This document shows, in pieces, positions 2,850 to 40,933 of a stretch of 64,000 nucleotides of DNA. The notes under the pieces were generated by a model. It worked only from the letters and a program-made list of their open reading frames with translations, made no database searches and had not been told where the DNA came from. The stretch covers positions 1,311 through 65,310 of the forward strand of contig CAYHYM010000002.1 in the NCBI GenBank assembly GCA_964360965.1, read 5' to 3'. The stretch's first letter is position 1; every line of letters begins with the position of its first letter. The translations under genes were made by a program, and so were the position numbers. This stretch comes from an uncultured Gammaproteobacteria bacterium. Its GTDB lineage: Bacteria; Patescibacteriota; Microgenomatia; Daviesbacterales; UBA10151.

Positions 2850-4091
2850 TTATGATGTGTTTTTAAAGAGGTTGTTTGCAAATTCTTTAGCCCAATCTTC
2901 AGCTTGTCTATCTGTCAGTGTAATACTGACAATGTGAGATGATGTCTCTTTAGCAACACATCCCTTATCTATTTTGCTAACTAATAGTCTAACCTCTTTT
3001 TCACTAGCCACTCCATGACTGGAAATTAGTGGTCCCACTTGAGTTTGGAATTCAGCCATATTAGGAATCTCCTCACCCATGGCTTTTTTAATACAAATGC
3101 CTAAAAATGTATGAAAAGAATCTATATAAACTTGCCTTAAGTTACCTGGTGGTAATGTCCAGATACAGCTTTGAGGTAAAAAATCGCTTCTGAATCTTAG
3201 GTCAGCATCTCTAAAAAAAGCTGGTCTGTTAAAATTGGCAAAATTAATGGCTGCTACTCCCAAAAGTGCCGCCCCTTTATCCTCTGTGATTAAAGGAAAC
3301 TCCACAAAAGGAGATTGTCCTCCCATAAAATCCCATGCCATTGACCGTTCGATCTCGGCCCTCCTTTGAGTTTGAAAATGACCTCCCCCCCTGGTATCAA
3401 CGGCCAAAATAGGAGCAACCTTATGTCCCAGAGCGGCAAAGGCTCCTGTGATATCTTGAGCTGCTCTACCAGAAATTACCGTATCTATCAACACTATCTG
3501 ACTATTTTGAACACCTTGATAATTTTTTAGCTCTGCCACAATTTCGCCGGGGCTCAATTTTTGATCATCATGAAGCTCTCTTTGCATCTTACCCATCAAG
3601 AAATAATACCACCCAAGATCTTCCGGGTATTCCTTGCCTAAAGAGACCAGATCCAAAAATGCTCTGGCACAAGATTCGCGCAGTTTTCTGGCCAGCCATT
3701 CTTCTCCATTTTTCTCGTAAGATACATCAGCAGTAAAAGGGTAAAGTACCACATCTACCTGACTCTCGTCCGATTGATTATGTTGGATAATTCTCCCATC
3801 TGATAAAAATTCAAATACTCTTTTGGGATAATAATTGGTCTGTGAAGGATCTACCAAGGGATGAACTTCATCAAGAGATTTTAGAGCCTGATGAGCCAAT
3901 AAAAAAATTGGTACTGCTCCACGGGAAGGAATCAAAACAACAGGTTTTTTCCCTGCTGAAATGATGTTTTCAGTAATGGTGTGAAACCTCACGGCCACTT
4001 CTTCACAACCGGTGATATATTCACCAATAGACTGTTCTGACAATTCTGGTTCTCTAAATATAACTCCCTGTTCAGTTTTTATTTCACTCAT
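2850..4091 (-). CDS. hypothetical protein with a phosphoribosyltransferase-like nucleotide-binding motif
   Basis: Long ORF, 413 aa. VLIDTVISGRAAQ resembles the PRTase PRPP-binding loop. No other recognisable signature. Confidence 0.45.
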   Translation of the reverse strand: MSEIKTEQGVIFREPELSEQSIGEYITGCEEVAVRFHTITENIISAGKKPVVLIPSRGAVPIFLLAHQALKSLDEVHPLVDPSQTNYYPKRVFEFLSDGRIIQHNQSDESQVDVVLYPFTADVSYEKNGEEWLARKLRESCARAFLDLVSLGKEYPEDLGWYYFLMGKMQRELHDDQKLSPGEIVAELKNYQGVQNSQIVLIDTVISGRAAQDITGAFAALGHKVAPILAVDTRGGGHFQTQRRAEIERSMAWDFMGGQSPFVEFPLITEDKGAALLGVAAINFANFNRPAFFRDADLRFRSDFLPQSCIWTLPPGNLRQVYIDSFHTFLGICIKKAMGEEIPNMAEFQTQVGPLISSHGVASEKEVRLLVSKIDKGCVAKETSSHIVSITLTDRQAEDWAKEFANNLFKNTS

Positions 4092-4506: not shown

Positions 4507-5811
4507 TTAATTCTTTAACCCTTCCAGCAGTCCGGTAAATTTTTTGATATTTTCTGCTGAATTCTCAATTGGTCCCTGAATGGTTAAATTCAGTTTACTA
4601 AAATCCCAATATTTTTTCATAAAATTCATAATATCTTTCTTACTTACTCTTTCTATCATCTTAGCATATTCATCAGGTGTGTAAATTTTATCTTCCCATA
4701 ATAGATCACCCTCAATCCAACTGGCAATATTACCTGGATGATCAAACTGCATTAGTATTTGATTAACAGTATAATTTTTGGCAAAATTTAATTCTTCCTC
4801 TGTAGGACCATTTTCCAAAAAAGAAGTTAGTTCTTTTATGATCAGCTCCATCACTTCCTCTACCTTGTCAGGTGCTGTTTGGGTGGAGATATAAACATAG
4901 GCAAAATGTTCATAGGTAGTTGCTCCCATATCCACTCCATAAACTAAACCTCGCTGCAACCTTAATAATCTATACAACCTGCTTACCCTAAGTCTCCCTA
5001 AAATACTTCTGGCTATAGACTGAGGAACTTGCTTGAGGATTCCTTCAGAATCAGGGATGGTGGAAAAGCTTAAATCAATATAACAAGTATTTAAAGTTCT
5101 ATCCTCTCTAATAGCCACCCGTCTTCCTGTTAAATCCTTGTTAGTCAATTTGGGAAATCCGGGAAAAGTTTTACCAGGGAGATATTTGCTAAAAAACTTG
5201 TCTATTAACTCTTCAATAATACTGGTATCAAATCCCCCCACCACTACCAGATAGGTATTTTTAGGGTGAAAAAAAATAGACCAAAAATTAACTAGATCTT
5301 TTTTCTGTAATTTTTTAATTATCTCTTCTGATCCACCACTATCAAGTAAGAAAGGATGCCCTTTTTTATATCTTACTGATGAGAAAAATCTGCCTCTTTT
5401 ATACCAATCAGTACCCTGTCTTTGCCAAATTTCCTCCAGGATTGCCCCTCTTTCTTTTTCTATTCCTGTCTCTGGGAAAAGGGGCTTAAAAAACACTTCG
5501 TGTGAAACTTTTAACATATCCTCTAAATGATTTGCCGGACCATTAATATAAAACCTGATCATCTGCGGAGCAGTCATGGCATTAAAACTACCTGCCAAAC
5601 CCTCAATAAAGTTATAGATAGCTTCACTACTGCCAAAAGTAGGGGTACCTTCTATTAAAATATGCTCCATGAAATGAGCCAAGCCTGAAGTTTTAGGGGT
5701 ATCAAAAATTGAACCACCCTTAACAGACTCACTGATAAAAACAGACTTCATCTGTGGAATTGAATAAGTGGCAACTTTTAATCCATTTTTTAAAGTAAAA
5801 GTTTTTAACAT
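4507..5811 (-). CDS. M16 family zinc peptidase, second copy
   Basis: HFMEHILIEGT HxxEH motif. 434 aa. Paired with the upstream M16 gene, as M16 A/B subunits often are. Confidence 0.8.
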   Translation of the reverse strand: MLKTFTLKNGLKVATYSIPQMKSVFISESVKGGSIFDTPKTSGLAHFMEHILIEGTPTFGSSEAIYNFIEGLAGSFNAMTAPQMIRFYINGPANHLEDMLKVSHEVFFKPLFPETGIEKERGAILEEIWQRQGTDWYKRGRFFSSVRYKKGHPFLLDSGGSEEIIKKLQKKDLVNFWSIFFHPKNTYLVVVGGFDTSIIEELIDKFFSKYLPGKTFPGFPKLTNKDLTGRRVAIREDRTLNTCYIDLSFSTIPDSEGILKQVPQSIARSILGRLRVSRLYRLLRLQRGLVYGVDMGATTYEHFAYVYISTQTAPDKVEEVMELIIKELTSFLENGPTEEELNFAKNYTVNQILMQFDHPGNIASWIEGDLLWEDKIYTPDEYAKMIERVSKKDIMNFMKKYWDFSKLNLTIQGPIENSAENIKKFTGLLEGLKN

Positions 5812-6424: not shown

Positions 6425-6748
6425 TCACATCCCGGGGATGCCTAAACCGCCCATCATGGGTTTCATCTCTTCAGCTGCTACTTTTTGGGATTGTTTTAAA
6501 GCCTCATTAACTGCTTCTGTCACTTTTTGCGGATCCACTAGCCCTGAGCTAGCTTGCCCTGAGCCTGTCGAAGGGGTCGAAGGGTCTCCGGAAATTGACT
6601 GCACTTTTTGATCTGCTGTCATCACCACAGTTACCCCCCGATGTTCCACAGTAATTTTGATCATGGCCAATTTTTTTTGCATTTCCATGGCCTGATTCCG
6701 CATTTTTTTTAAATCACCCAACTGCTTTAAATTATCAAAAATTCCCAT
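6425..6748 (-). CDS. ybaB: nucleoid-associated protein YbaB/EbfC, carrying an in-frame low-complexity insert
   Basis: MGIFDNLKQLGDLKKMRNQAMEMQKKL matches the YbaB N-terminus. Conserved dnaX-ybaB-recR neighbourhood. Confidence 0.85.
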   Translation of the reverse strand: MGIFDNLKQLGDLKKMRNQAMEMQKKLAMIKITVEHRGVTVVMTADQKVQSISGDPSTPSTGSGQASSGLVDPQKVTEAVNEALKQSQKVAAEEMKPMMGGLGIPGM

Positions 6749-7504: not shown

Positions 7505-9061
7505 CTAATCTATCAGTTTTCCTTCAAAGATTTCAGAGGCTACTCTAATTACTTCATCATCAGCAGCCACCTCCACATTGGCCACATCTTCCAATTTTTG
7601 AGGCCTGGCGCCCAAAACTGTGGACACCTTAATAGATTTTCCCAAAACATCTGAAAAGACTGATTCCAAAAGATCCCTGGACTTTGGCGCCTCCAATATT
7701 CTTTGATGAAAAGAATAGGGAACTTCCAAAATTACCATACCATCAGAGGCATCACTAACTTTAACTGAACGAAGCAGAGCCTCCAAAGAAAAATTAAAAG
7801 GACGGATGGTTTCTAAAACAAAACTCCATTTTTCTTTAAGCTTTAGGATATCAGGGGAATCAGAATTTGACGGTGGATGATTTATTTTTACTTCGTCATT
7901 CTGGAGGGATGTACCATCTCGGTACGTCCCGATAGAATCTTCCATAGATGCTATCGGTCGCTTCGCTCCCTCCAGCATGACAGAGGATTCGTTTTCGCAT
8001 ATTTCCACCACTGCCAGCTCCAGCGGCAGAGCAGGAATTGAGGCAAACTTCATTTTTTCCAAAGCTTGCTGTAAGGTATTCAAAGCGCCAGCCAAATAGT
8101 TGATGCTTAATTTATCTGCCAGATTGTCAAGCAGTTGGTATTGATCTTTTGGATACTCGAGCTCAACCAAACTTTCCCCCAGATCATGTTTGATAAGCAG
8201 GAGTTTTCGCAAGATATTAAGCATCTCCAAATTAAGCTGCCTTGCATCTACTCCCACCTCTAGTTGTCTGGTAATCTCCAATATGGCAGCTTTAACATCA
8301 TTTGAGGCTATTTTCTCAACTGTGCTAAATGCCTCTTCAAACCTGACTACTTGTAAAACCCCTACCACTAAAGCTGCCGTAATTTTGCCCTCCATGCTTG
8401 ATGCCTGATCTAACAGTTTTACTCCATCTCTAAAACTGCCATCTGAGGCTCTGGCCAGAATTTGTAAGGCCTCATCATCTATATCAATTTTTTCATCTTT
8501 GGCCACTTTTTGTAAAAGCGATAAAAGCTCCGGAACAGTGGCCAGTTTAAAATCCAGCCTTTGCACTCGGGATAAAATTGTGGCCGGTATTTTTTCTCCT
8601 TGAGTGGTGGCCAAAATAAAAAGGGCGTGAGTAGGGGGTTCTTCCAGAGTTTTTAAAAGGGCATTTAAAGCCTCTTGAGTTAACATATGCACCTCATCAA
8701 TGATGTAAACTTTTCTTTTGGCGCTGCTTGGTAAAAGTTTTACATTTTCCCGCAAGGCCCTGATATCATCTATTCCCCTGTTGGAAGCAGCATCAATTTC
8801 TATCAGGTCCAGATTAGATCCATCTGTAATAGATGAACAAGTAGAACATTTATTACAAGGAACATTCTGCTTTGCAGAACAATTTACCATTTTGGCCAAA
8901 ATTCGGGCTGTTGATGTTTTACCGCTGCCGCGAGGTCCTACCAAAAGATAGGCATGGGAAAGTTTTCCAGTCAAATATGCTGACTTTAGGTTTTTTTTAA
9001 CATGATCCTGACCAGCCAGAGCATCAAGAGTTTGCGGGCGGTATTTTAAATAAAGTGTCAT
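7505..9061 (-). CDS. dnaX: DNA polymerase III subunit gamma/tau
   Basis: Walker A GPRGSGKTSTARILAK. Zinc module CSAKQNVPCNKCSTCSS. Contains an 87-bp in-frame palindromic insert at 7895-7981. Confidence 0.9.
   Translation of the reverse strand: MTLYLKYRPQTLDALAGQDHVKKNLKSAYLTGKLSHAYLLVGPRGSGKTSTARILAKMVNCSAKQNVPCNKCSTCSSITDGSNLDLIEIDAASNRGIDDIRALRENVKLLPSSAKRKVYIIDEVHMLTQEALNALLKTLEEPPTHALFILATTQGEKIPATILSRVQRLDFKLATVPELLSLLQKVAKDEKIDIDDEALQILARASDGSFRDGVKLLDQASSMEGKITAALVVGVLQVVRFEEAFSTVEKIASNDVKAAILEITRQLEVGVDARQLNLEMLNILRKLLLIKHDLGESLVELEYPKDQYQLLDNLADKLSINYLAGALNTLQQALEKMKFASIPALPLELAVVEICENESSVMLEGAKRPIASMEDSIGTYRDGTSLQNDEVKINHPPSNSDSPDILKLKEKWSFVLETIRPFNFSLEALLRSVKVSDASDGMVILEVPYSFHQRILEAPKSRDLLESVFSDVLGKSIKVSTVLGARPQKLEDVANVEVAADDEVIRVASEIFEGKLID
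7895..7981. repeat. 87-bp palindromic element with 15-bp GTCATTCTGGAGGGA terminal inverted repeats, inserted in-frame in dnaX
   Basis: Left end gtcattctggaggga. Right end tccctccagcatgac (reverse complement gtcatgctggaggga). Internal cccgatagaatc / gatgctatcggtcg pairing. Confidence 0.8.
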
Positions 9062-9447: not shown

Positions 9448-9455
9448 ATTCCTTT

Positions 9456-9535
9456 GTCATTCCGGACTTGATCCGGAATCTATATAATTATTTGTATGGA
9501 TCCTGAATCAAGTTCAGGATGACACTAGGGTGTCA
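9456..9535. repeat. intergenic GTCAT-family palindromic element (nested hairpins)
   Basis: gtcattccggacttgatccggaatc ... cctgaatcaagttcaggatgacactagggtgtca. Related copy at 11271-11301. Confidence 0.7.
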
Positions 9536-9968
9536 GCTTGCCCCTAACTATCCCACTTACAACATTCCCGTCAGCTTGACCTTTAACCTTCCCCATCACC
9601 TTTCCCCTCACCTTCCCCATATCCTGCAAAGAAGTAGCTCCTATTTCATTTATAGCCTGTTGGACTATATTAGTCAATTCCTCAGTTGAAAGTTGAGCTG
9701 GCAGATATCCTTCTAAAATTTTTAGCTCTTGTTCTTCCTTTAAAGCTTGCTCCTCTCTACCTCCAGACCTAAAACCAGAAGCTGCTTCAGATCTCCTCTT
9801 AGTCTCTTTTTGAATAATAGAAATCACATCCTGATCAGATAATTCCTGTCCTTTGGCAATCTGGACATTATGGATTTCAGATAAAAGCAACCGCAAGGTG
9901 GATATTTTTACTTCCTCACGATCAAACTGCGCCTGTTTTAAATCTTCTTGTATTGTAATCAGTAACAT
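9525..9968 (-). CDS. GatB/YqeY domain protein
   Basis: Typical YqeY sequence with ILEGYLP and GKVMGKVKG motifs. Confidence 0.8.
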   Translation of the reverse strand: MLLITIQEDLKQAQFDREEVKISTLRLLLSEIHNVQIAKGQELSDQDVISIIQKETKRRSEAASGFRSGGREEQALKEEQELKILEGYLPAQLSTEELTNIVQQAINEIGATSLQDMGKVRGKVMGKVKGQADGNVVSGIVRGKLTP

Positions 9969-10165
9969 TAACTACCAAATCTTTTGGCCCGCATAATTTT
10001 TCTTCTTTTTTCCGCTAAATATTCCTGCCGAAGCTGTGAGGGTTTTCTATAAAATTCCCTTTGGCGGATCTCCTGTACCACACCCTCCAAAAGAACCTTC
10101 TTTTGGAACTTTCTAATAACCGAATTAGTATTATCTCTGGGACCAGCTTTTACTATGATGCTCAT
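9968..10165 (-). CDS. rpsU: 30S ribosomal protein S21
   Basis: 65 aa, basic. The IRKFQKK...EIRQREFYRKPS...RRK pattern matches bS21. Confidence 0.85.
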   Translation of the reverse strand: MSIIVKAGPRDNTNSVIRKFQKKVLLEGVVQEIRQREFYRKPSQLRQEYLAEKRRKIMRAKRFGS

Positions 10166-11250
10166 TTTAACTCACCCACCATCTTCTTTAGAAGATCCAA
10201 CGTTCTAGTCTGTCTTAAGGCATGGCGAAGATGCAATCTTGGTTCTTGCGCTTCAAACTGTCTTTTTACCCTCTCATCTGTAATCTTCTCCACTTCTGCC
10301 TGAAGCTCCTCCTCACTCACCTGGATATTTTCCAATCTTGCAACTTCTGCCAACCCCAATTCCATCCGCATATTTTTCTCAGCCTGCGGCTTCCATTCAT
10401 TTTTGAGCTGTTCTAAGGTTTTCCCTTGTCCCTTTAAGTAATCCTCCAAGAGTAACCCCATATCAGCCACTCTTCTCTGCAAGGATACCAGCATTCTGTT
10501 TAACTCATCGCTGATCAACACCTCAGGCAGCTCAACCGCGGTAATTTTTTCCACCTCCTGCAGGATGGCCTCTTCAAAATCAAGTTCGGAATTGAGTTTA
10601 ACATGATCTTCCAAATCTTTCCTGATTTTTAATCTCAGGTCAGCCAAACCTGCTGACCCCATGGCTTTGGCAAAAGTATCATCTGGTCCGGCTGCGCTGG
10701 ATTGCCCGTTTGATGATGGAGTCTGAGATGGCTGGTTTTGTTGAAAATTAATTGATCCGCCGGAACTGCTTCGCGCTTGCGCAGCTCCTGCGCCCACACT
10801 CCATCTTTTATACAAATCATCAATCACCTTAGCAACTTCCTCATCAGTCACGAGTTTGGTGGTAGGTCTTGTTACTTTTATTGTTTTATAATCTCCCACA
10901 GTAACTTGCGGCCTGTTGGTGATAGTGGCTTTATATTGAAGCTGACCACCTTTGGCATAAGAAATCAGTTGGTACTTTGGATAATCAATGGGGATAACAT
11001 CAGTGCCTTTTAAAGCCTCTATTAAAAATGATGGTTGAACGCTTTTTAACACTTCATCCTGAAGTTTAACCCCCAAAGACTGCTCAACCATGCTGCCAGG
11101 GGCAGTACCTTTTCTAAAACCAGGCAATTCCACATCAAGGGATAACTTTGTCAGGACCTCATTCCATTTAGGTTCTAAATCTACCCATGGAACAGTAATG
11201 GTTACTTCAACAATACTCTTTGGTTGTTTAATAATATTTTTCTGAATCAT
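10162..11250 (-). CDS. tig: trigger factor (short form, with a low-complexity insert)
   Basis: N-terminal ribosome-binding signature GFRKGTAP. Insert SSSGGSINFQQNQPSQTPSSNGQSSAAGP is encoded by a GC-rich patch. Confidence 0.75.
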   Translation of the reverse strand: MIQKNIIKQPKSIVEVTITVPWVDLEPKWNEVLTKLSLDVELPGFRKGTAPGSMVEQSLGVKLQDEVLKSVQPSFLIEALKGTDVIPIDYPKYQLISYAKGGQLQYKATITNRPQVTVGDYKTIKVTRPTTKLVTDEEVAKVIDDLYKRWSVGAGAAQARSSSGGSINFQQNQPSQTPSSNGQSSAAGPDDTFAKAMGSAGLADLRLKIRKDLEDHVKLNSELDFEEAILQEVEKITAVELPEVLISDELNRMLVSLQRRVADMGLLLEDYLKGQGKTLEQLKNEWKPQAEKNMRMELGLAEVARLENIQVSEEELQAEVEKITDERVKRQFEAQEPRLHLRHALRQTRTLDLLKKMVGELK

Positions 11251-11325
11251 AGGCTGTTTAACGTTTTTGCGTCACTATTTTCAGGATGACACTTGGTGTC
11301 AATTTAACAGAAATCATCTTTAAAA

Positions 11326-12642
11326 TCAATTAGACTTAATAATATCAATCAATTGTTTTAAATCTTTAAAGTTCGTTTCCTTTTCTGATCTTTTTTTAAC
11401 CTCTAATTTATCTTTGGCTCGCCCTGAGTTTACCTGCAGTGAGCCACTCGGTCCTGAGCTCGTGGCCGAAGGGCTTGTCGAACCTGCCGAATGGGCCGAA
11501 TGGGTCTTTTTAGAAATAACCACTCTGTAGGGAATTCCAATTAAATCAGCATCGGCAAATTTTTCTCCGGCAGATACATCTACTCTGTCATCAAACAAAA
11601 CCTCAATTCCTTCAACTTGCAGTAATTTATAAACCTTTTCCGCCTCCCTCATTACAGATTCTTGATCCAAATCCAATCCCACCAAATGAACCTGATATGG
11701 AGCTACAGACTCCGGCCAAATAATGCCTTTTTCATCATTAAATACTTCCACAATTGCTCCCATGGTTCTTGATATCCCCAAACCATAACAGCCTGCGGAG
11801 ACCAGCTTCTCTTTGCCATCCCGATCAACAAAAGTTAATTTAAAAGTTTTGGCAAACGACTCCTTTAAGGGGAAAATATTACCAACCTCAATAGACCTTT
11901 CCAGCGTTAAATTCCCTCCACATTGAACACATTTTTTATCTTCTGCAATTTCTGCATTTGTGGCAGTTTTACAACTCTCACAGACAAAAACAGTATCTTC
12001 TCCTGAAGGAGTCAGGGTTTGAAATTCCAAAGACAGGTTTGAAAAAGTACCTCCACCTGCTTTAGTCTCCACAACTGGTAGAGTCAATCTTTGAAAAATT
12101 TTCAGATAAGCCTTCCTGACAATTTGGTAATACTCATCCCTATCGCTATCATCTGTATGAAAACTGTACAGATCCTTCATCAAAAATTCTCTTCCACGAA
12201 GTAATCCTGCTTTAGCCCTTGGCTCATTTCTAAATTTGGTTTGAACCTGATAAAGACACAAAGGTAAGTCTCTGTAAGATTTTGCGTATTCTTTTACCAG
12301 AGGATAAATTATCTCTTCGTGGGTTGGTCCCAAAACCAAATCAGAGCCACCTCCTTTTAATTTAAAAAGTACATCAAAAGAGGAAAACCTGCCTGTTTTT
12401 TTCCAAGCATCAGCAGGGTGTAAGGCTGGCATAACCAACTCATGTGCCCCAATATCATTCATTTCCTCTCTGACTATATCAGAAATCTTATCTAAAACTC
12501 TCCAACCTAAGGGTAAATAGGTATAAACTCCAGCCATCTCCTGATGGATAAAGCCAGCTCGAGTTAGTAACTGATGATTGATGGACTCAGCCCCTGAGGG
12601 GGCTTGCTTTAAAGTTTTCGGGAAAAGTTTTGAGTATTTCAT
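11326..12642 (-). CDS. proS: prolyl-tRNA synthetase (compact form lacking the large editing domain)
   Basis: Class II ProRS N-terminus (HQLLTRAGF..., VMPALHPADAWKKTGR). Zinc module CESCK...CVQCGG. C-terminal Ser/Pro-rich tail encoded by a palindromic element. Confidence 0.85.
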   Translation of the reverse strand: MKYSKLFPKTLKQAPSGAESINHQLLTRAGFIHQEMAGVYTYLPLGWRVLDKISDIVREEMNDIGAHELVMPALHPADAWKKTGRFSSFDVLFKLKGGGSDLVLGPTHEEIIYPLVKEYAKSYRDLPLCLYQVQTKFRNEPRAKAGLLRGREFLMKDLYSFHTDDSDRDEYYQIVRKAYLKIFQRLTLPVVETKAGGGTFSNLSLEFQTLTPSGEDTVFVCESCKTATNAEIAEDKKCVQCGGNLTLERSIEVGNIFPLKESFAKTFKLTFVDRDGKEKLVSAGCYGLGISRTMGAIVEVFNDEKGIIWPESVAPYQVHLVGLDLDQESVMREAEKVYKLLQVEGIEVLFDDRVDVSAGEKFADADLIGIPYRVVISKKTHSAHSAGSTSPSATSSGPSGSLQVNSGRAKDKLEVKKRSEKETNFKDLKQLIDIIKSN

Positions 12643-20329: not shown

Positions 20330-22390
20330 CTAGGTAGACACCTTAGTATTATCCCTACCTTTCGGCTTTGTCCAACTAGCATATTTGCACTTGGGCCAGT
20401 TTTTACAGCCATAAAAAGTTCTACCTTTGCGGGTTCTTCTGACCACAACCTCTCCACCATCATCAGGACATAAACCTGCTATTTTTTCTTCCAAAGATTC
20501 TGTATATTTACATTCAGGAAATCCGGAACAGGCCAAAAACTTGCCGAATTTGCCTGTCCGGACTATCAGTTCTTTACCACAATCCGGACATTTTTTACCT
20601 GCATACTCCACAACCAATTTAACTTTCTCGGCAGTTTCAATAATCTCTGCCAATTTTTTGGCAAAAGGAGTATAAAACTCTCTTAAGGTGGGCACCCATG
20701 ATCTCTCTCCTCTGGAGATCTCATCCAACTCATCCTCCATTTGGGCGGTGAATTGATAATCCACTATATCGGCAAAATTTTTAACCAGAAAATCAGTCAC
20801 AGCAAACCCCAATGCAGTGGGAATAAACCTTCGCAGCTGCCTTTCCACATAAAATCTGTCCACAATTATGGATAAAATTGCAGCATAGGTAGAAGGCCTG
20901 CCAATGCCCAACTCCTCTAATTTTTTAATTAAAGATGCTTCAGTATATCTTGGAGGTGGTTCTGTGAAATGCTGTCCAGGAATGATCTGGATCAGATTAA
21001 GTGGATCATTTTGTGAAAGCTTTGGTAAAACTTGTTTTTTCTCTTCACCATCTTCCCTTGACTCGCCGGAGCCTTCGGCGGAGGCGGTTTCTGCCTCTTT
21101 GCCATATAATTTTAACCAGCCATCGAACTTAATCACAGAACCAGTTGCTCTTAGCAAGTACACCTCGAAGGAGTCAAAGCCCACCTTCGAGGTGGAGGCC
21201 TTCACATCCACTGTGGTTTGATCCATCACTGCTTCATTCATCTGACAGGCCACAAATCTTTTCCAAATTAGATCATATAGCCTGACATGATCCCTGTTCA
21301 TCCCTGGTAAGCTTCGCAAGGCCTGGCCTTGCGTGCGTACATCAGTCGTCCTTATCGCCTCATGAGCTTCTTGTATATTTTTGGCTTTGGATTTGTATAA
21401 TCTTGGGCTTTTGGGTAAATATTGTCTACCAAACTCTTTACCAATAAATTCTCTGGCAGATGCAATTGCCTGGGACGCAAGATTTACTGAATCAGTTCTC
21501 ATATAAGTGATTAAACCCCGCTCATAGAGATTTTGGGCCAGCATCATGGCACGCCTGGCGCTAAATCCTAGCCTGTTTGAGGCTGTTTGCTGCAGGGTGG
21601 AGGTGGTAAATGGAGGAAAAGGGTAGCGGCGAACTTCTTTTTTGGTAACTTTGGCAATCTGATAATCTGCTTTTTGCAGATTTTTTACATGCCCATCAGC
21701 TTCATTTTTATTTTTAATGGTTAATTTTTTACCATTTTGTTCTATTAAGATTGCAGTAAAGGAGGCGAAGTCTGAGCCAACCAACCCCAATATAGCTTCA
21801 ATTATCCAGTACTCCTGAGGTTTAAAAGTGGTAACTTCTCTTTCTCTTTCAACCACAAGGCGTAGCGCCACAGACTGCACCCTTCCGGCAGACAAACCCC
21901 TTTTAACTTTTTGCCAAAGAAGTGGAGATAATTTATAACCAACCAATCTATCCAAAACTCTCCTGGCTTGTTGAGCATCAACCAGTTTTAGGTCAATGCC
22001 ACGAGGATTCTCGAAGGCTTCTTTAATGGCCTCTGGAGTAATCTCATGGAAGACCACTCTTTTAATGTCTTTGCTGATACTCCGATCCACTGACCCACTG
22101 ACTAACTGGGCTATATGCCAGGCAATGGCCTCACCTTCCCGATCAGGATCTGTGGCTAGCCAAAGTGTTTTGGTTCCTTTAGCAATTTTTTTTAAGTTAT
22201 TAACAGTTTTTAATTTGGCTTTGGGAATAATATATCTAGGTTCAAAATTATGTTCCACATCCACTCCCAAATCGCCTTTGGGCAAATCTCTTACATGCCC
22301 CATGGAAGCCTCAATTTGATATTTATCACCTAAAAAGCTCTGGAGGGTGCGCGCCTTAACAGGTGACTCAACTATCACTAAATTCTGCAT
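20330..22390 (-). CDS. topA: DNA topoisomerase I with C-terminal C4 zinc ribbons
   Basis: Toprim N-terminus LVIVESPVKARTL. Two C-terminal CxxC...CxxC zinc ribbons. Start placed at MQNLVIV. Confidence 0.9.
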   Translation of the reverse strand: MQNLVIVESPVKARTLQSFLGDKYQIEASMGHVRDLPKGDLGVDVEHNFEPRYIIPKAKLKTVNNLKKIAKGTKTLWLATDPDREGEAIAWHIAQLVSGSVDRSISKDIKRVVFHEITPEAIKEAFENPRGIDLKLVDAQQARRVLDRLVGYKLSPLLWQKVKRGLSAGRVQSVALRLVVEREREVTTFKPQEYWIIEAILGLVGSDFASFTAILIEQNGKKLTIKNKNEADGHVKNLQKADYQIAKVTKKEVRRYPFPPFTTSTLQQTASNRLGFSARRAMMLAQNLYERGLITYMRTDSVNLASQAIASAREFIGKEFGRQYLPKSPRLYKSKAKNIQEAHEAIRTTDVRTQGQALRSLPGMNRDHVRLYDLIWKRFVACQMNEAVMDQTTVDVKASTSKVGFDSFEVYLLRATGSVIKFDGWLKLYGKEAETASAEGSGESREDGEEKKQVLPKLSQNDPLNLIQIIPGQHFTEPPPRYTEASLIKKLEELGIGRPSTYAAILSIIVDRFYVERQLRRFIPTALGFAVTDFLVKNFADIVDYQFTAQMEDELDEISRGERSWVPTLREFYTPFAKKLAEIIETAEKVKLVVEYAGKKCPDCGKELIVRTGKFGKFLACSGFPECKYTESLEEKIAGLCPDDGGEVVVRRTRKGRTFYGCKNWPKCKYASWTKPKGRDNTKVST

Positions 22391-22405
22391 AAAATACTCC
22401 TTATT

Positions 22406-22548
22406 GTCATTCTGAGTGTAACGAAGAATCTCTTGCGAATGCAAGTACTATTGTAGTGATGTTGTCAAGGGTCGCCGAAGGCGACCCGCAGACCCTGAGC
22501 ACTGAGCTTGTCGAAGTGTCGAATGGGTCAATAGTTCGACTACGCTCA
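22406..22548. repeat. composite GTCAT / cctgagc / gtcgaa...gaatgggtc repeat cluster upstream of topA
   Basis: gtcattctgagtgtaacgaagaatc. gtcgccgaaggcgac palindrome. ccctgagcactgagcttgtcgaagtgtcgaatgggtc, shared with copies in ybaB, proS and at 37600-37720 and 61650-61720. Confidence 0.7.
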
Positions 22549-23143: not shown

Positions 23144-23238
23144 TATATTTAATAATACACTAAAAAGTCATTCTGGAGCGAAGCAATAGAATCTTTTTAT
23201 CGAGGGGATCGAGAGGTCGGAATAGAACCGGGCGGACC

Positions 23239-26682: not shown

Positions 26683-27765
26683 TTAGGGAATTTTACAATA
26701 AATTCCAGACCCTAAGTTTCTGACCACCCCTTTTATTTCCATTTTTAAAAGACCCGATGAAACCTCGGCTGCGCCAAGTTCCAAAATCCTGCATATTTCA
26801 TCTATGTGTTTATTATCATTTTGAAGACAATCAATTATTTTCTTTTCATTTTCGGAAAGATCTGAAACTTTAACCATCTCCTTTTTTACTCCCTCCATTC
26901 CCAACTCCTGTAAAATTTCAGATGAGTCAAAAACCGGCCTGGCCCCTTCTTTGATTAAAGACATTGGGCCTTTTGATAGATCAGAGGTGATTGGTCCTGG
27001 CACGGCAAAAACATCTCTTCCTTGTTCCAAAGCCAATCTGGCAGTAATCAAAGAACCGGAATCCTGAGCCGCCTCGGTTATCAAGACTGCCAAAGATAAC
27101 CCGGCTATAATACGGTTGCGGGAAGGGAAATTTCCGGCCAGAGAAGGATAATCAGGAGGATACTCGGAAATGACAGCCCCAAAACCTTCCGCAATTCTCT
27201 TTACCAGTTGGGTATTTTCAGCCGGAAAGATTTTATTTAACCCCCCACCCAAAACAGCCATAGTTCGGCCCTTCGGCAGGCTCAGAGCAGTCTTGTGCGC
27301 TTGAGTGTCAATCCCCCTGGCCAAACCTGAAACAATGGTAAAGCCTGACAGAACCAGATCACGGGTAAATTTTTCTGTTACCAGCTTGCCGTAACCAGTC
27401 ATTTTTCTGGTACCCACCACAGCAATGGCCCGATCATCCCCAGGTACAATCTCACCTTTATAGTACAAAACTATGGGAGAATCATAAATTTGTTTAAGTA
27501 AGTCAGGGTAGTTATCGTCAAAAATTGTTAACCAGGAAACACCCATCTTCTTAATAGACTCAGCATAAAGGATAGGATCCAGAATCTTTCTGGTTTCTGC
27601 CAAAAGATCCAAAACAGTTTGCGGCACCCCTATTTGTCTAATCTCCTTTAAATTAGCCTCCCAGGCCAGTTTCGGATCTTTAAAATAATCAATTATTGCC
27701 TTCAGCCTAATAGGACCTAGCCCATCAATACTATGCAGCGCCAAAAGATAAGCAATATTTTTCAT
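26683..27765 (-). CDS. dprA: DNA processing protein DprA (Smf)
   Basis: Rossmann-like DprA core GNFPSRNRIIAGLSLAVLITEAAQDSGSLITARLALEQGRDVFAVPG. Start placed at MKNIAY. Confidence 0.85.
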   Translation of the reverse strand: MKNIAYLLALHSIDGLGPIRLKAIIDYFKDPKLAWEANLKEIRQIGVPQTVLDLLAETRKILDPILYAESIKKMGVSWLTIFDDNYPDLLKQIYDSPIVLYYKGEIVPGDDRAIAVVGTRKMTGYGKLVTEKFTRDLVLSGFTIVSGLARGIDTQAHKTALSLPKGRTMAVLGGGLNKIFPAENTQLVKRIAEGFGAVISEYPPDYPSLAGNFPSRNRIIAGLSLAVLITEAAQDSGSLITARLALEQGRDVFAVPGPITSDLSKGPMSLIKEGARPVFDSSEILQELGMEGVKKEMVKVSDLSENEKKIIDCLQNDNKHIDEICRILELGAAEVSSGLLKMEIKGVVRNLGSGIYCKIP

Positions 27766-32836: not shown

Positions 32837-33044
32837 GGGAAAATATACCAGAAAACTACCATAACTATTCAGTATTTCCCGGAAACTGTCATCCCTGCGA
32901 AGGCAGGGATCCAATTAACTATTTCTGCTAATTAGATTCCCGCATATGCGGGAGTGACACTGGGAAGAACTGAACTCATACAAACTACCCTATTGACAAA
33001 GGTGTAAGTAAAGTATTATTTTAAGAAACAACTGCTCCAAGATA

Positions 33045-38842: not shown

Positions 38843-40933
38843 ATGCTTGACAAAATCATTCAATATTCTTTTTATCTTTTATTCTTTCTCACTCCCCTTT
38901 TTTGGACTCCTGTAAATTATGAGCTTTTTGAATTCAATAAAATGCTGCTGGTTTACTTTTTAACCATTGTAATAGTGCTGACTTGGATTTTAAAAATGAT
39001 AAATCAAAAAACACTGATCTTAAACAGGACCCCCTTAGATATTCCACTTCTTTTATTTTTGGGAGCGAATATCTTGTCTACCATCTTTTCCATAGATACC
39101 CATACTTCTATTTGGGGATACTACTCAAGATCAAATGGGGGGCTTCTATCCATAGTTTCATACCTGCTATTATATTGGGCCTTTGTTTCAAACATGGATG
39201 CGCCCAAGGTCTTAAACACCCTCAAGTTTGGGTTAGTATCAGGACTGATCATCTCTTTATGGGGAATTGCAGAACACTTTGGAGTGTCACCTTCTTGTGT
39301 GATCTTGCGAGGGGAATTCAATGCCTCCTGTTGGATACAGGATGTGCAATCCAGAGTTTTTGCCACTTTAGGCCAGCCCAACTGGCTAGCGGCATACCTT
39401 GCCATGTTAATTTTTCCAAGCTTATATTTCTTTTTAACAGCCAAAAACCGTATACTACAAACTACCTACTACCTACTACTAGTTACCTCTTATCTGGCTT
39501 TTACTTTTACCTACTCCAGAGGCCCAATTTTGGGGCTGATAACTGGAATGATAGTGTTTCTCATTCTGTCATTCCCGCGTAGGTCATCGACCGTCGGGAT
39601 GACAAAAAGGGTACTTATCGTTTTAGCTACATTTTTTCTTATCAATCTCCTCTTTGGCTCTGCCTTAACCAACTTTAGACTGGTCTCCAAATTTGCCCCC
39701 CCACCCAGACCGGCTATTTCACTACCTACTCCAGCCTCAACTGTCACCCAGCTTGAACAAGGCGGAACCGAATCAGGACAAATCCGCTTGATTGTCTGGA
39801 AAGGGGCTTTGGAGATCTTCAAACATTTCCCAATTTTTGGTTCAGGTGTGGAAACCTTTGCCATATCCTACTTCCAGTTCCGGCCACAGGCTCATAATTT
39901 GGTCTCAGAATGGGATTTTTTATATAACAAGGCCCACAATGAGTTTTTAAATTATTTAGCCAATACCGGACTGGTGGGACTGGGGACATATTTGATAATT
40001 ATTATAACTTTTATAATAATTATACTAAAGCGCAAAGGAACCGACCATTTACTACTTTTATCCCTCCTTGCCAGCTATTTAAGCTACCATGTGACCAACT
40101 TTTTTGGCTTTTCCGTTGTTGCAACAGCCCTCCTTTTTTACCTATTTCCAGCATTAGCCTTTGTTGCCACAGAATCCACAAAAGCGCTTAAATTGTCAAC
40201 TGTCAATTGGATCTACCGTCGTCCCCTTTACACCAAACTTGCCAAAGGCGTGGTGATCTTTTTAACTCTCTATCTTCTATATTTCATTATTAAGCTTTGG
40301 TATGCGGATAACCTTTTTGCCAAAGGCATGAAAGAATCAGAGACCGGTAATGTGGGATCATCTTATAATTTTTTATTGTCTGCCAGCATTTTAAACAGCA
40401 ACGAGCCATTTTATAGATCTGAGCTGTCATTTGCAGCAGCCTCTGCAGCGCTGTCTCTTTCACCGGGTGAAGCCACGCTTTCGACAAAACTTAAAGATCA
40501 GGCCACTCAAGAATCAGAAAAAGTGCTTAAATCATCCCCCAAAAATGTGTCATTTTGGCGAACTGCCATCAGAACCTATTTTCAACTATCAGCTCTTGAT
40601 GAATCATTTTTCCCAAAAACCATGGCAGCCCTTGATCAAACCATCAAGCTGGCTCCCACTGATGCCAAACTGTACTACAACAAAGCCATACTTTTGGGAC
40701 AAAAAAATGATAATGAAGATGCCAAAGAAGCTTTAAAAAAAGCCATTGAACTTAAACCAAATTATAGGGAAAGTTACCTTGCTTTAGGGATATTTTACTT
40801 TGATGAAGGAAAGAGTAAAGAGGCTGTTGAGACTATGCAAAAAGTGCTGACTTTAGTGCCGGGTGATGCTGATGCGCTTAATCAGCTTAATGAGTGGGGC
40901 AAGCAAGGAATTGCTACGCAATCAGGGCAATGA
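38843..40933 (+). CDS. polytopic membrane protein with an O-antigen ligase/polymerase-like (Wzy_C) domain and C-terminal TPR repeats
   Basis: More than 10 TM helices. NKAHNEFLNYLANTGLVGL matches the WaaL/O-antigen-ligase motif. C-terminal TPR-like region (AKLYYNKAILLGQKND...ALKKAIELKPNY). Contains a 36-bp GTCAT-TIR insert at 39568-39603. Confidence 0.7.
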   Translation: MLDKIIQYSFYLLFFLTPLFWTPVNYELFEFNKMLLVYFLTIVIVLTWILKMINQKTLILNRTPLDIPLLLFLGANILSTIFSIDTHTSIWGYYSRSNGGLLSIVSYLLLYWAFVSNMDAPKVLNTLKFGLVSGLIISLWGIAEHFGVSPSCVILRGEFNASCWIQDVQSRVFATLGQPNWLAAYLAMLIFPSLYFFLTAKNRILQTTYYLLLVTSYLAFTFTYSRGPILGLITGMIVFLILSFPRRSSTVGMTKRVLIVLATFFLINLLFGSALTNFRLVSKFAPPPRPAISLPTPASTVTQLEQGGTESGQIRLIVWKGALEIFKHFPIFGSGVETFAISYFQFRPQAHNLVSEWDFLYNKAHNEFLNYLANTGLVGLGTYLIIIITFIIIILKRKGTDHLLLLSLLASYLSYHVTNFFGFSVVATALLFYLFPALAFVATESTKALKLSTVNWIYRRPLYTKLAKGVVIFLTLYLLYFIIKLWYADNLFAKGMKESETGNVGSSYNFLLSASILNSNEPFYRSELSFAAASAALSLSPGEATLSTKLKDQATQESEKVLKSSPKNVSFWRTAIRTYFQLSALDESFFPKTMAALDQTIKLAPTDAKLYYNKAILLGQKNDNEDAKEALKKAIELKPNYRESYLALGIFYFDEGKSKEAVETMQKVLTLVPGDADALNQLNEWGKQGIATQSGQ

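Follow-up and report, generated by a model that had tools for sequence, protein, structure and literature searches.

What is the 87-bp palindromic segment that lies in frame within the dnaX gene of an uncultured bacterium of the Daviesbacterales (Patescibacteriota), and how might it have come to be there? The gene is found on a stretch of 64,000 nucleotides from contig CAYHYM010000002.1 (assembly GCA_964360965.1), which was analyzed as a whole and is called the window here, and the segment occupies positions 7895-7981. We consider it likely, with a probability of roughly 0.8, that the element is a dimer of the CGTC-tagged repetitive extragenic palindromic (REP) type, also known in the form of Ssn-related motifs (SRM), and that it sits in frame in the linker of DnaX.

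The sole long open reading frame (ORF) that spans the element is the dnaX frame of 518 residues on the minus strand (7505-9061). Its product is the gamma/tau subunit of DNA polymerase III, and the best homologues are found in Candidatus Daviesbacteria and other Microgenomates at 62% identity or less. Because the first base of the frame lies 1080 nt away from position 7981 (9061 minus 7981), codon 361 starts at base 7981. The element corresponds exactly to codons 361-389 and encodes the 29 residues VMLEGAKRPIASMEDSIGTYRDGTSLQND. The Pfam domains DNA_pol3_gamma3 (residues 228-356) and DnaX_C (residues 407-492) are situated on either side, so that residues 361-389 fall in the interdomain linker. 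An identical DnaX is encoded in two independent replicate assemblies of Hainich H51 groundwater (ENA ERZ1292623 and ERZ1292627) as well as on one 82-kb NCBI contig, which excludes an assembly artifact. In the protein collection the window DnaX is present as P0361, and its 90% cluster is represented by an unrelated-looking fragment of 38 residues (P0362), which accounts for the lack of any homologue match above 62% identity.

The 87 nt fold strongly. As RNA the free energy is -41.4 kcal/mol (z score -6.5, with none of 200 shuffled sequences as good), the opposite strand reaches a z score of -6.8, and as DNA the fold has -23.0 kcal/mol and a z score of -6.4. A repeat search identified arms of 15 nt at 7895-7909 (GTCATTCTGGAGGGA) and 7967-7981 (TCCCTCCAGCATGAC), which are 57 nt apart and complementary at 14 of 15 positions (93%). 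By our own arithmetic, an inverted repeat of 14/15 within 200 nt is expected about 0.5 times per 64 kb. By themselves the arms are therefore not significant, and the weight is carried by the fold and by the family evidence given below.

A structural scan divides the element into two hairpin modules and a spacer:

7895-7939, plus strand: left hairpin module (T-type), cGTC-ATTCT-GGA-(GGGATGTACC atctc GGTACGTCCC)-GAT-AGAAT-C
7940-7946: spacer of 7 nt between the modules, TTCCATA
7947-7981, minus strand: right hairpin module (G-type), tGTC-ATGCT-GGAGGGAGCGAAGCGACCGAT-AGCAT-C, containing a GCGAAGC motif

Such modules generally open with a (C/T)GTC tag, which is followed by a stem whose first bases are AT, a loop, the returning stem that ends in AT, and a 3' C. 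In the dnaX modules the outer stem is 5 bp long, GGA and GAT form internal loops, and a freely varying inner hairpin takes the place of the loop. The left module has a DNA fold of -10.4 kcal/mol (z score -3.6) and fits the pattern GTCATNCTGGAG..CGATAGNATC. The outer stems, ATTCT/AGAAT on the left and ATGCT/AGCAT on the right, are related by a compensatory double change, and the lone mismatch in the end-to-end inverted repeat is one half of this change. The 87-bp segment is thus a dimer of two inverted hairpin modules with the tags outside (head-head), and not a simple element with terminal inverted repeats. A preliminary description of this DNA had reported the palindrome at these coordinates, with this sequence and a length of 29 codons, all of which are borne out, and the hairpin for which it proposed a folding test is supported by the strong fold of both strands. 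It also described GTCAT terminal inverted repeats; the ends are indeed 14/15 complementary, but this is a by-product of the inverted arrangement of two modules, each of which conserves its own stem.

The pattern GTCATNCTGGAG-N(5-30)-CGATAGNATC, which specifies 20 bases, was scanned in viral contigs and in contigs that represent one genome per species. Matches were found in 7 viral contigs and in at least 120 stretches of the one-genome-per-species contigs. Among the matches listed, the patescibacterial hosts are Roizman-, Curtiss-, Levy-, Woese-, Komeili- and Falkowbacteria, Parcubacteria, WWE3 and Saccharibacteria, and further hosts are Fibrobacter, metagenome-assembled genomes (MAGs) labeled Gammaproteobacteria, Clostridia, Bacteroidales, Cloacimonadota, and two archaea. 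The variable stem pair is of the Watson-Crick type in 122 of 131 distinct modules (T-A 76, C-G 41, G-C 5), where 62.7 would be expected if the two bases were independent, and a G-T wobble at this pair occurs in none of the 131. Covariation without any G-T pair points to pairing in DNA and not in RNA.

The modules also follow rules of arrangement. In 0.99 Mb of sequence, 65 pairs of adjacent modules are arranged tags-out, 9 tags-in and 23 in tandem. The stem bases differ between the two modules in 39 of 40 distinct dimers, and in 35 of these 40 each module retains its pairing, which indicates that the hairpins of the modules are conserved and the long palindrome is not. The base that precedes GTC is T or C in 88% of 344 modules (T 61%, C 27%) and G in 3%, and the base after the terminal ATC is a pyrimidine in 92%; these preferences agree with the published ends H-GTC...C-Y. 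Target-site duplications are absent, since for k-mers of 2-8 nt at most 3 of 62 dimers have identical flanks. Tags-out dimers with spacers of 2-17 nt are located in long open frames in 17 cases, and the host proteins in other lineages include AtpG, GatB, a ClpC-like ATPase, TopA, glycosyltransferases and O-antigen-ligase-like proteins. The length of these dimers is a multiple of three in 9 of the 17, too ambiguous a result to build on; the probable reasons are that some of the ORFs are spurious and that GTC...GAC does not mark the true ends of the insert exactly.

One of the viral matches, L007 (IMG/VR, 5357 bp), is a phage-like contig with a gene that by eye resembles one for a terminase large subunit, and it carries seven modules of the dnaX subtype in repeated blocks of about 500 bp (1011-1046, 1431-1463, 1514-1549, 3504-3548, 3762-3806, 4803-4837 and 4886-4921). 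Several module-rich MAGs are titled "uncultured Gammaproteobacteria" (L018, L024, L028, L099, L101, L106, L110 and L125). At least one of their genes, that for TopA in L110, resembles its counterpart in the window by eye, and the label of those MAGs may be wrong.

Within the window, nine strict modules of the form GTCAT-stem (at least 5 bp)-ATC are present, compared with 1.10 +/- 1.04 in 500 dinucleotide shuffles (maximum 7). The copies outside dnaX are the following:

9456-9523: intergenic tags-out dimer of modules 9456-9480 (plus) and 9499-9523 (minus), canonical, with 8-bp stems and 5-nt loops
32888-32958: intergenic tags-out dimer of modules 32888-32911 (plus; GTCATCCCTGCGAAGGCAGGGATC, tail CCA) and 32935-32958 (minus; GTCACTCCCGCATATGCGGGAATC)
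22406-22430, plus strand: single module, GTCATTCTGAGTGTAACGAAGAATC, 16 nt upstream of the likely start codon of topA (MQNLVIVESP)
23167-23193, plus strand: single intergenic module, GTCATTCTGGAGCGAAGCAATAGAATC, of the GGAG..AATAG subtype, like the dnaX modules
11271-11290, minus strand: degenerate remnant of 20 bp, GTCATCCTGAAAATAGTGAC, intergenic between the ORFs 10162-11250 and 11326-12642
39568-39603: internally deleted dimer remnant of 36 bp, in frame (SFPRRSSTVGMT, 12 codons) in a loop of a Wzy_C/TPR membrane protein (38843-40933, plus strand)

The related copies that the preliminary description had named therefore all exist, as two dimers, two single modules and two remnants, and the second in-frame copy lies where it was placed. 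The modules at 9456, 9523 and 32888 have the format of an 8-bp stem and a loop of 4-5 nt, and the module that ends at 32958 has one stem mismatch. The dimer at 9456-9523 fills the spacer between yqeY and ybeY, which is 77 nt long in the window; the spacer measures 5 nt in the related locus L002, and in L004 the two genes overlap. Three of the six reading frames are open in the dnaX copy, whereas the intergenic dimers have stops in all six, a pattern that is expected from selection on coding copies. An Rfam scan of the whole window returned three tRNAs only, with no known RNA family at any of the repeats.

The loop of the Wzy_C/TPR protein is a second recurrent site for these repeats. Full or partial dimers are present at this loop in the Daviesbacteria orthologues P0250, P0252, P0259, P0260, P0264, P0281, P0283 and P0287, with P0252 (SFPRRSST...IPAFAGMT) as an example of a full dimer. 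The topA ORF (20330-22444, minus strand) has a mechanically assigned TTG start and runs through the module at 22406, so that MHSQEILRYTQNDNKEYF precedes the likely true start MQNLVIVESP. Small palindromes of the form GACAC-N3-4-GTGTC overlap the GAC end of a module at 9519-9537 and 11286-11301 and yield ATGACACnnnGTGTCA; a junction of this type is translated as EMTQSVILSE in several DnaX orthologues. These palindromes may mark a place where modules meet tags-in, or they may belong to the end of a longer element.

CGTC-tagged REPs were defined by Di Nocera, De Gregorio and Rocco (2013, BMC Genomics 14:522; PMC3733652). They have a terminal unpaired CGTC tag (often TGTC, also CCTC), stems whose first two positions are complementary A-T residues, and an unpaired tail of 3 nt; in families 1-4 the stems measure 8-9 bp and the loops 4-5 nt. 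Most occur as head-head dimers, that is, with the tags outside, and intragenic dimers encode 20-30 residues in known proteins, many of which act in replication or repair (PMC3733652). The same paper equates CGTC-1 with the Neisseria repeat dRS3, and two Rickettsia palindromic elements (RPE) of R. conorii with members of the set, RPE-6 with CGTC-1 and RPE-4 with CGTC-4. Its Table 1 gives no transposase association for CGTC repeats, and the authors left open a mobilization by RAYT, the IS200/IS605-type tyrosine transposase of GTAG-tagged REPs.

The dnaX element shares most of these features. CGTC at 7892-7895 precedes ATTCT in its left module, and TGTC is found at the corresponding position of the right module on the minus strand. 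The clean modules of the window read GTC-AT...AT-C and have the tails CTT, CTA or CCA. The dnaX, 9456 and 32888 elements are all tags-out, and stems of 8 bp with loops of 4-5 nt are found in the 9456 and 32888 dimers, apart from the mismatch noted above. Beyond the published rules, a dimer of the dnaX subtype nearly always combines one T-type with one C/G-type module. Five phyla are named in PMC3733652, and the Candidate Phyla Radiation (CPR, or Patescibacteria) is not among them.

A second published system has the same ends. Chenal et al. (2025, Nat Commun 16:2388; PMC11893778) showed that NTS (CGTCATTCCCGCGMAVGCGGGAATCYRG) and Ssn-related motifs flank ssnA, a GIY-YIG gene of 94 codons, in an arrangement, NTS-ssnA-NTS, that resembles an insertion sequence. 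SsnA binds the hairpin solely as single-stranded DNA and cuts a few nucleotides upstream. Cleavage depends critically on the GTC located 5' of the palindrome and binding on the C immediately 3' of it, and NTS and SsnA modulate natural transformation in Neisseria (PMC11893778). The nuclease of that system is placed in the CDD family cd10448. Neither Patescibacteria nor copies in coding regions are mentioned in that paper. Both dnaX modules and all clean modules of the window have the 5' GTC and the 3' C, and a base other than G before GTC and a pyrimidine after the C are common to modules of the dnaX family.

The likeness to RPEs concerns behavior as well as the signature of tag and stem. Those elements, reportedly described by Ogata et al. 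in 2000, are palindromic repeats that sit in frame within genes essential to a small genome, where surface or linker regions tolerate them, as here. In-frame copies of the present family are likewise multiple: in the window they interrupt dnaX (29 codons) and the gene for the Wzy_C protein (12 codons), and elsewhere their hosts are AtpG, GatB, a ClpC-like protein and TopA. RPE families are defined by consensus sequences specific to Rickettsia, whereas the comparison made here uses the signature of tag and stem: RPE-4 and RPE-6 have the CGTC tag in common with the dnaX modules, a link that depends on what PMC3733652 states about those two elements. At about 100-150 bp RPE-1 is longer, and the same paper sets it apart as a separate, longer palindromic insertion. 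Tags, stems and arrangement place the dnaX element in the superfamily of CGTC-tagged REPs that includes Neisseria dRS3/NTS and Rickettsia RPE-4 and RPE-6. Within it, the dnaX modules are a bulged-hairpin variant that lies outside the four described CGTC families and outside the published SRM search string. The RPE-like behavior suggested in the preliminary description is thereby upheld. Its expectation that such a family would be noteworthy for a reduced genome is not, because the superfamily is widespread, already described both as CGTC REPs and as NTS/SRM repeats, and not specific to reduced genomes; the novelty is smaller than had been hoped.

DnaX orthologues provide an independent view of the site. 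A total of 120 orthologues (P0001-P0120) were aligned, linker peptides were scored in 111 of them, and the DNA was compared for the loci L001, L002 and L004. The element lies in a hypervariable linker between LPLELAVVEIC and SPDILKLKEKW that is 4-93 residues long. In L001, whose protein (P0001) is 62% identical, this dimer recurs at the corresponding position, and its flanks match as well (tct|GTCATG...AATGAC|gaagtaaa). The right module, which is read first, is identical at 34 of 35 nt between the window and L001, and in the second module of L001 the inner hairpin has been replaced with an unrelated perfect hairpin of 7 bp. Nucleotide identity is about 91% over the first module and the spacer and 0.68 over the whole gene. 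L002, a Daviesbacteria MAG, has a related dimer there, whose outer stems are ATCCT/AGGAT and ATTCT/AGAAT. The element is absent from L004 (P0016), where the linker is 37 residues shorter than in L002. Orthologues without the segment thus exist, as the preliminary description anticipated, and the orthologue that shares it, L001, retains the palindromic signature at the nucleotide level.

Judged by peptide signature, repeat-derived peptides are present in the linker of 21 of the 111 orthologues (about 19%), with head and tail in 14 and the head only in 7. They stem from several module subtypes (VILSE.., VIASEAKQ.., VIARSE..). All begin within a few residues of one point, after LPLELAVVEIC, and this shared start could mark a hot spot, or else go back to an ancient insertion that gene conversion has since reshaped. 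A decayed module (ITVRNEVMKQS) is located just upstream of the intact dimer of L001.

In other genomes, modules of the dnaX subtype bracket a gene. Three of the loci that match the pattern, L085, L099 and L113, encode a single-domain GIY-YIG protein of 94-95 residues (PF01541, E values of 8e-21 and 1e-16), and each of these genes is bracketed tags-out by modules of the family, mostly of the dnaX subtype. The protein has Tyr-17 and Glu-64 at the positions that were mutated in SsnA. A metagenome scan with this protein gave 80 loci, and the counts that follow are for the 74 genes flanked on each side by 160 nt or more. A module lies within 150 nt of the gene in 68 of the 74. A same-strand (plus) module is located upstream in 52, an opposite-strand (minus) module downstream in 50, and 42 have the full tags-out bracket, with median distances of 27 and 21 nt. 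Where both ends are of the GGA..GATAG subtype, 12 of 15 units have two different end types, as in the dimers without a gene. Three units come from the metagenome of the window itself, and one of them, L137, has the module subtype of dnaX; its GC content of 41-49%, compared with 39% for the window, means that L137 is not assignable to the window genome.

The nuclease family is very large, with at least 7166 matches. The best 120 of these (P0121-P0240) share 65-80% identity across phyla, and they include entries from Parcubacteria, Omnitrophota, Xanthobacteraceae, Thermodesulfobacteriota, Poribacteria and Cytophagales. Such identity between hosts so distant is unusually high and suggests frequent horizontal transfer of the 94-residue nuclease. 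Several homologues of 115-138 residues may carry spurious N-terminal extensions, as seen for topA. The NCBIfam search with the bracketed nuclease gave no family-level name and only a sub-threshold match to a group I intron endonuclease, a sequence search of the Protein Data Bank gave only a distant match to UPF0213, and viral contigs gave matches to the GIY-YIG pattern, none of which was confirmed as a relative.

As the same module subtype brackets the GIY-YIG gene elsewhere, the dnaX element looks like a version of the Ssn unit that lacks the gene. We tentatively suggest that the tags-out dimers derive, as miniature and non-autonomous copies, from a selfish unit with a single gene, which encodes a hydrolytic GIY-YIG nuclease of the Ssn family acting on single-stranded DNA; mobilization of the dimer by an Ssn-type nuclease is, likewise, a possibility and not the expected outcome. 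The dnaX dimer itself is best taken for the two ends of a GIY-YIG unit minus its gene, which entered the linker between domain III and the C-terminal domain of DnaX in an ancestor shared with the L001 lineage. The hairpins would act as single-stranded DNA, an Ssn-type nuclease would nick a few nucleotides 5' of each tag, on opposite strands, and the unit would then be copied by host repair or recombination. On this reading the dimer persists in dnaX because its 29 codons are free of stops and lie in a linker of variable length. It is translated as 29 extra residues that probably have no role in DnaX, and its presence would then be neutral.

Several observations weigh against this interpretation, both as to the identity of the dimer and as to its mobility. 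The dnaX modules deviate from the CGTC format, with outer stems of 5 bp and "loops" of 21-31 nt that contain an inner hairpin. The right module alone has a DNA fold of -3.4 kcal/mol with a z score near 0, which is not significantly stable by nearest-neighbor energies. The SRM string HGTCWYN(0-2)YYVSBRHN(0-5)WNVSBRGN(0-2)RNCYNB has no exact match in the window, the dnaX modules included; when one substitution is allowed there are 5 matches (9455-9483 and 32932-32959 among them), compared with 3.7 in shuffles, so that the string is not enriched. The nuclease is missing from the lineage as far as it was surveyed: no GIY-YIG ORF was found in the 64-kb window by motif expression or tblastn, none in about 30 kb of the other DnaX-orthologue (Daviesbacteria-like) loci, and no Daviesbacteria-named entry is among the best 120 of the at least 7166 homologues. 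GIY-YIG enzymes are hydrolytic nucleases and not transposases, and we know of no CGTC repeat that has been shown to transpose. The same-species matches to the window DnaX are the two replicate assemblies with an identical gene, and the next orthologue is 62% identical, so that no exact empty site in a close relative was obtained and the word "insertion" rests on comparison at the level of the family. Finally, conservation between the window and L001 is higher in the element than elsewhere in the linker, which could indicate a function.

This last point bears on the alternative that fares best, in which the hairpins are sites for an Ssn-type nuclease that the host maintains, for instance to modulate recombination or uptake of single-stranded DNA, and the dnaX copy is useful at the DNA level and not selfish. 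The effect of NTS and SsnA on transformation in Neisseria (PMC11893778) and the many orthologues that bear such repeats in the same protein loops fit this proposal too. We nevertheless regard it as rather unlikely. Copies at 11271, at 39568 and in the upstream linker of L001 are decayed or internally deleted, the presence of the element varies among orthologues and the inner hairpins are freely replaced, and the nuclease gene that would use the sites was not found in this lineage within the scope just given.

The ends of the element and its dispersed copies in the window would also be compatible with a miniature inverted-repeat transposable element (MITE), or with a REP or REPIN moved by a DDE transposase or by the RAYT tyrosine transposase, the GTCAT ends then being terminal inverted repeats recognized by the enzyme. 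GTAG REPs and REPINs resemble the present family in their tagged hairpins, in inverted dimers capable of folding as a single long hairpin, and in a small bracketed gene, and a role of RAYT in CGTC repeats was left open in PMC3733652. The resemblance ends at the tag, which is (C/T)GTC and not GTAG, at the stems, where G-T pairs are common in GTAG REPs and absent here, and at the gene between the ends, which encodes a GIY-YIG nuclease and no transposase, in keeping with Table 1 of PMC3733652. The two ends differ systematically, with each module keeping its own stem, and this alternative as a whole appears improbable. Its classical form is excluded: a MITE has target duplications flanking its terminal repeats, and these are absent in the 62 dimers.

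In E. coli, frameshift signals in dnaX give a short gamma-like product. The very stable RNA fold of the element just past domain III, a stop after 9 codons in the next frame of the coding strand, and the occurrence of hairpin repeats of some kind at this spot in many orthologues could be taken for a functional mRNA structure, such as a roadblock that yields a similar short product at the domain III boundary. This we consider very improbable, as the 30 nt upstream contain no slippery heptamer, none of the 131 covarying stems has a G-T (G-U) pair, the same modules are found between genes, on either strand and in unrelated proteins, and about 80% of the orthologues are without any such element. 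A native linker that is palindromic by chance, or an assembly artifact, is effectively refuted by the fold, by the 20-base pattern in at least 120 genome stretches, by the same dimer in L001 and by the identical gene in replicate assemblies, even though the 14/15 repeat alone is not rare and the linker is hypervariable.

What lies in dnaX is a repeat of a known kind, in a lineage for which we found no earlier description of it. With it, the phenomenon of in-frame palindromic repeats in essential genes, as known from RPEs, extends to the ultra-small genomes of the CPR/Patescibacteria, and three threads that had been separate, RPEs, CGTC REPs and the NTS/Ssn nucleases, are linked. The resemblance of the dimers to the two ends of the GIY-YIG unit, with left and right ends that differ systematically, makes their spread testable. 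If the suggested selfish Ssn unit is real, it would be a class of mobile element without a transposase, with T-type and C/G-type ends nicked on opposite strands. Such a unit would spread across phyla, and in the CPR would repeatedly colonize and lengthen linkers and loops of DnaX, AtpG, GatB, TopA and ClpC. It would also answer what moves the CGTC repeats and RPE-4 and RPE-6 of Rickettsia. The repeats have a bearing on how disordered linkers grow in essential proteins and, for annotation, on the spurious N-terminal extensions and small ORFs that modules create, as at topA.

The window contains a second repeat family, with the core CCTGAGCCTGTCGAAGGG, of which three copies are present where none is expected (6539-6583, 22501-22518 and 27269-27286). 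The first lies in ybaB (6425-6748, minus strand) and gives YbaB a clean insert of 15 residues, PSTPSTGSGQASSGL, relative to the 73%-identical orthologue of L002. The copy at 27269 is inside a DprA-like ORF and may be native sequence.

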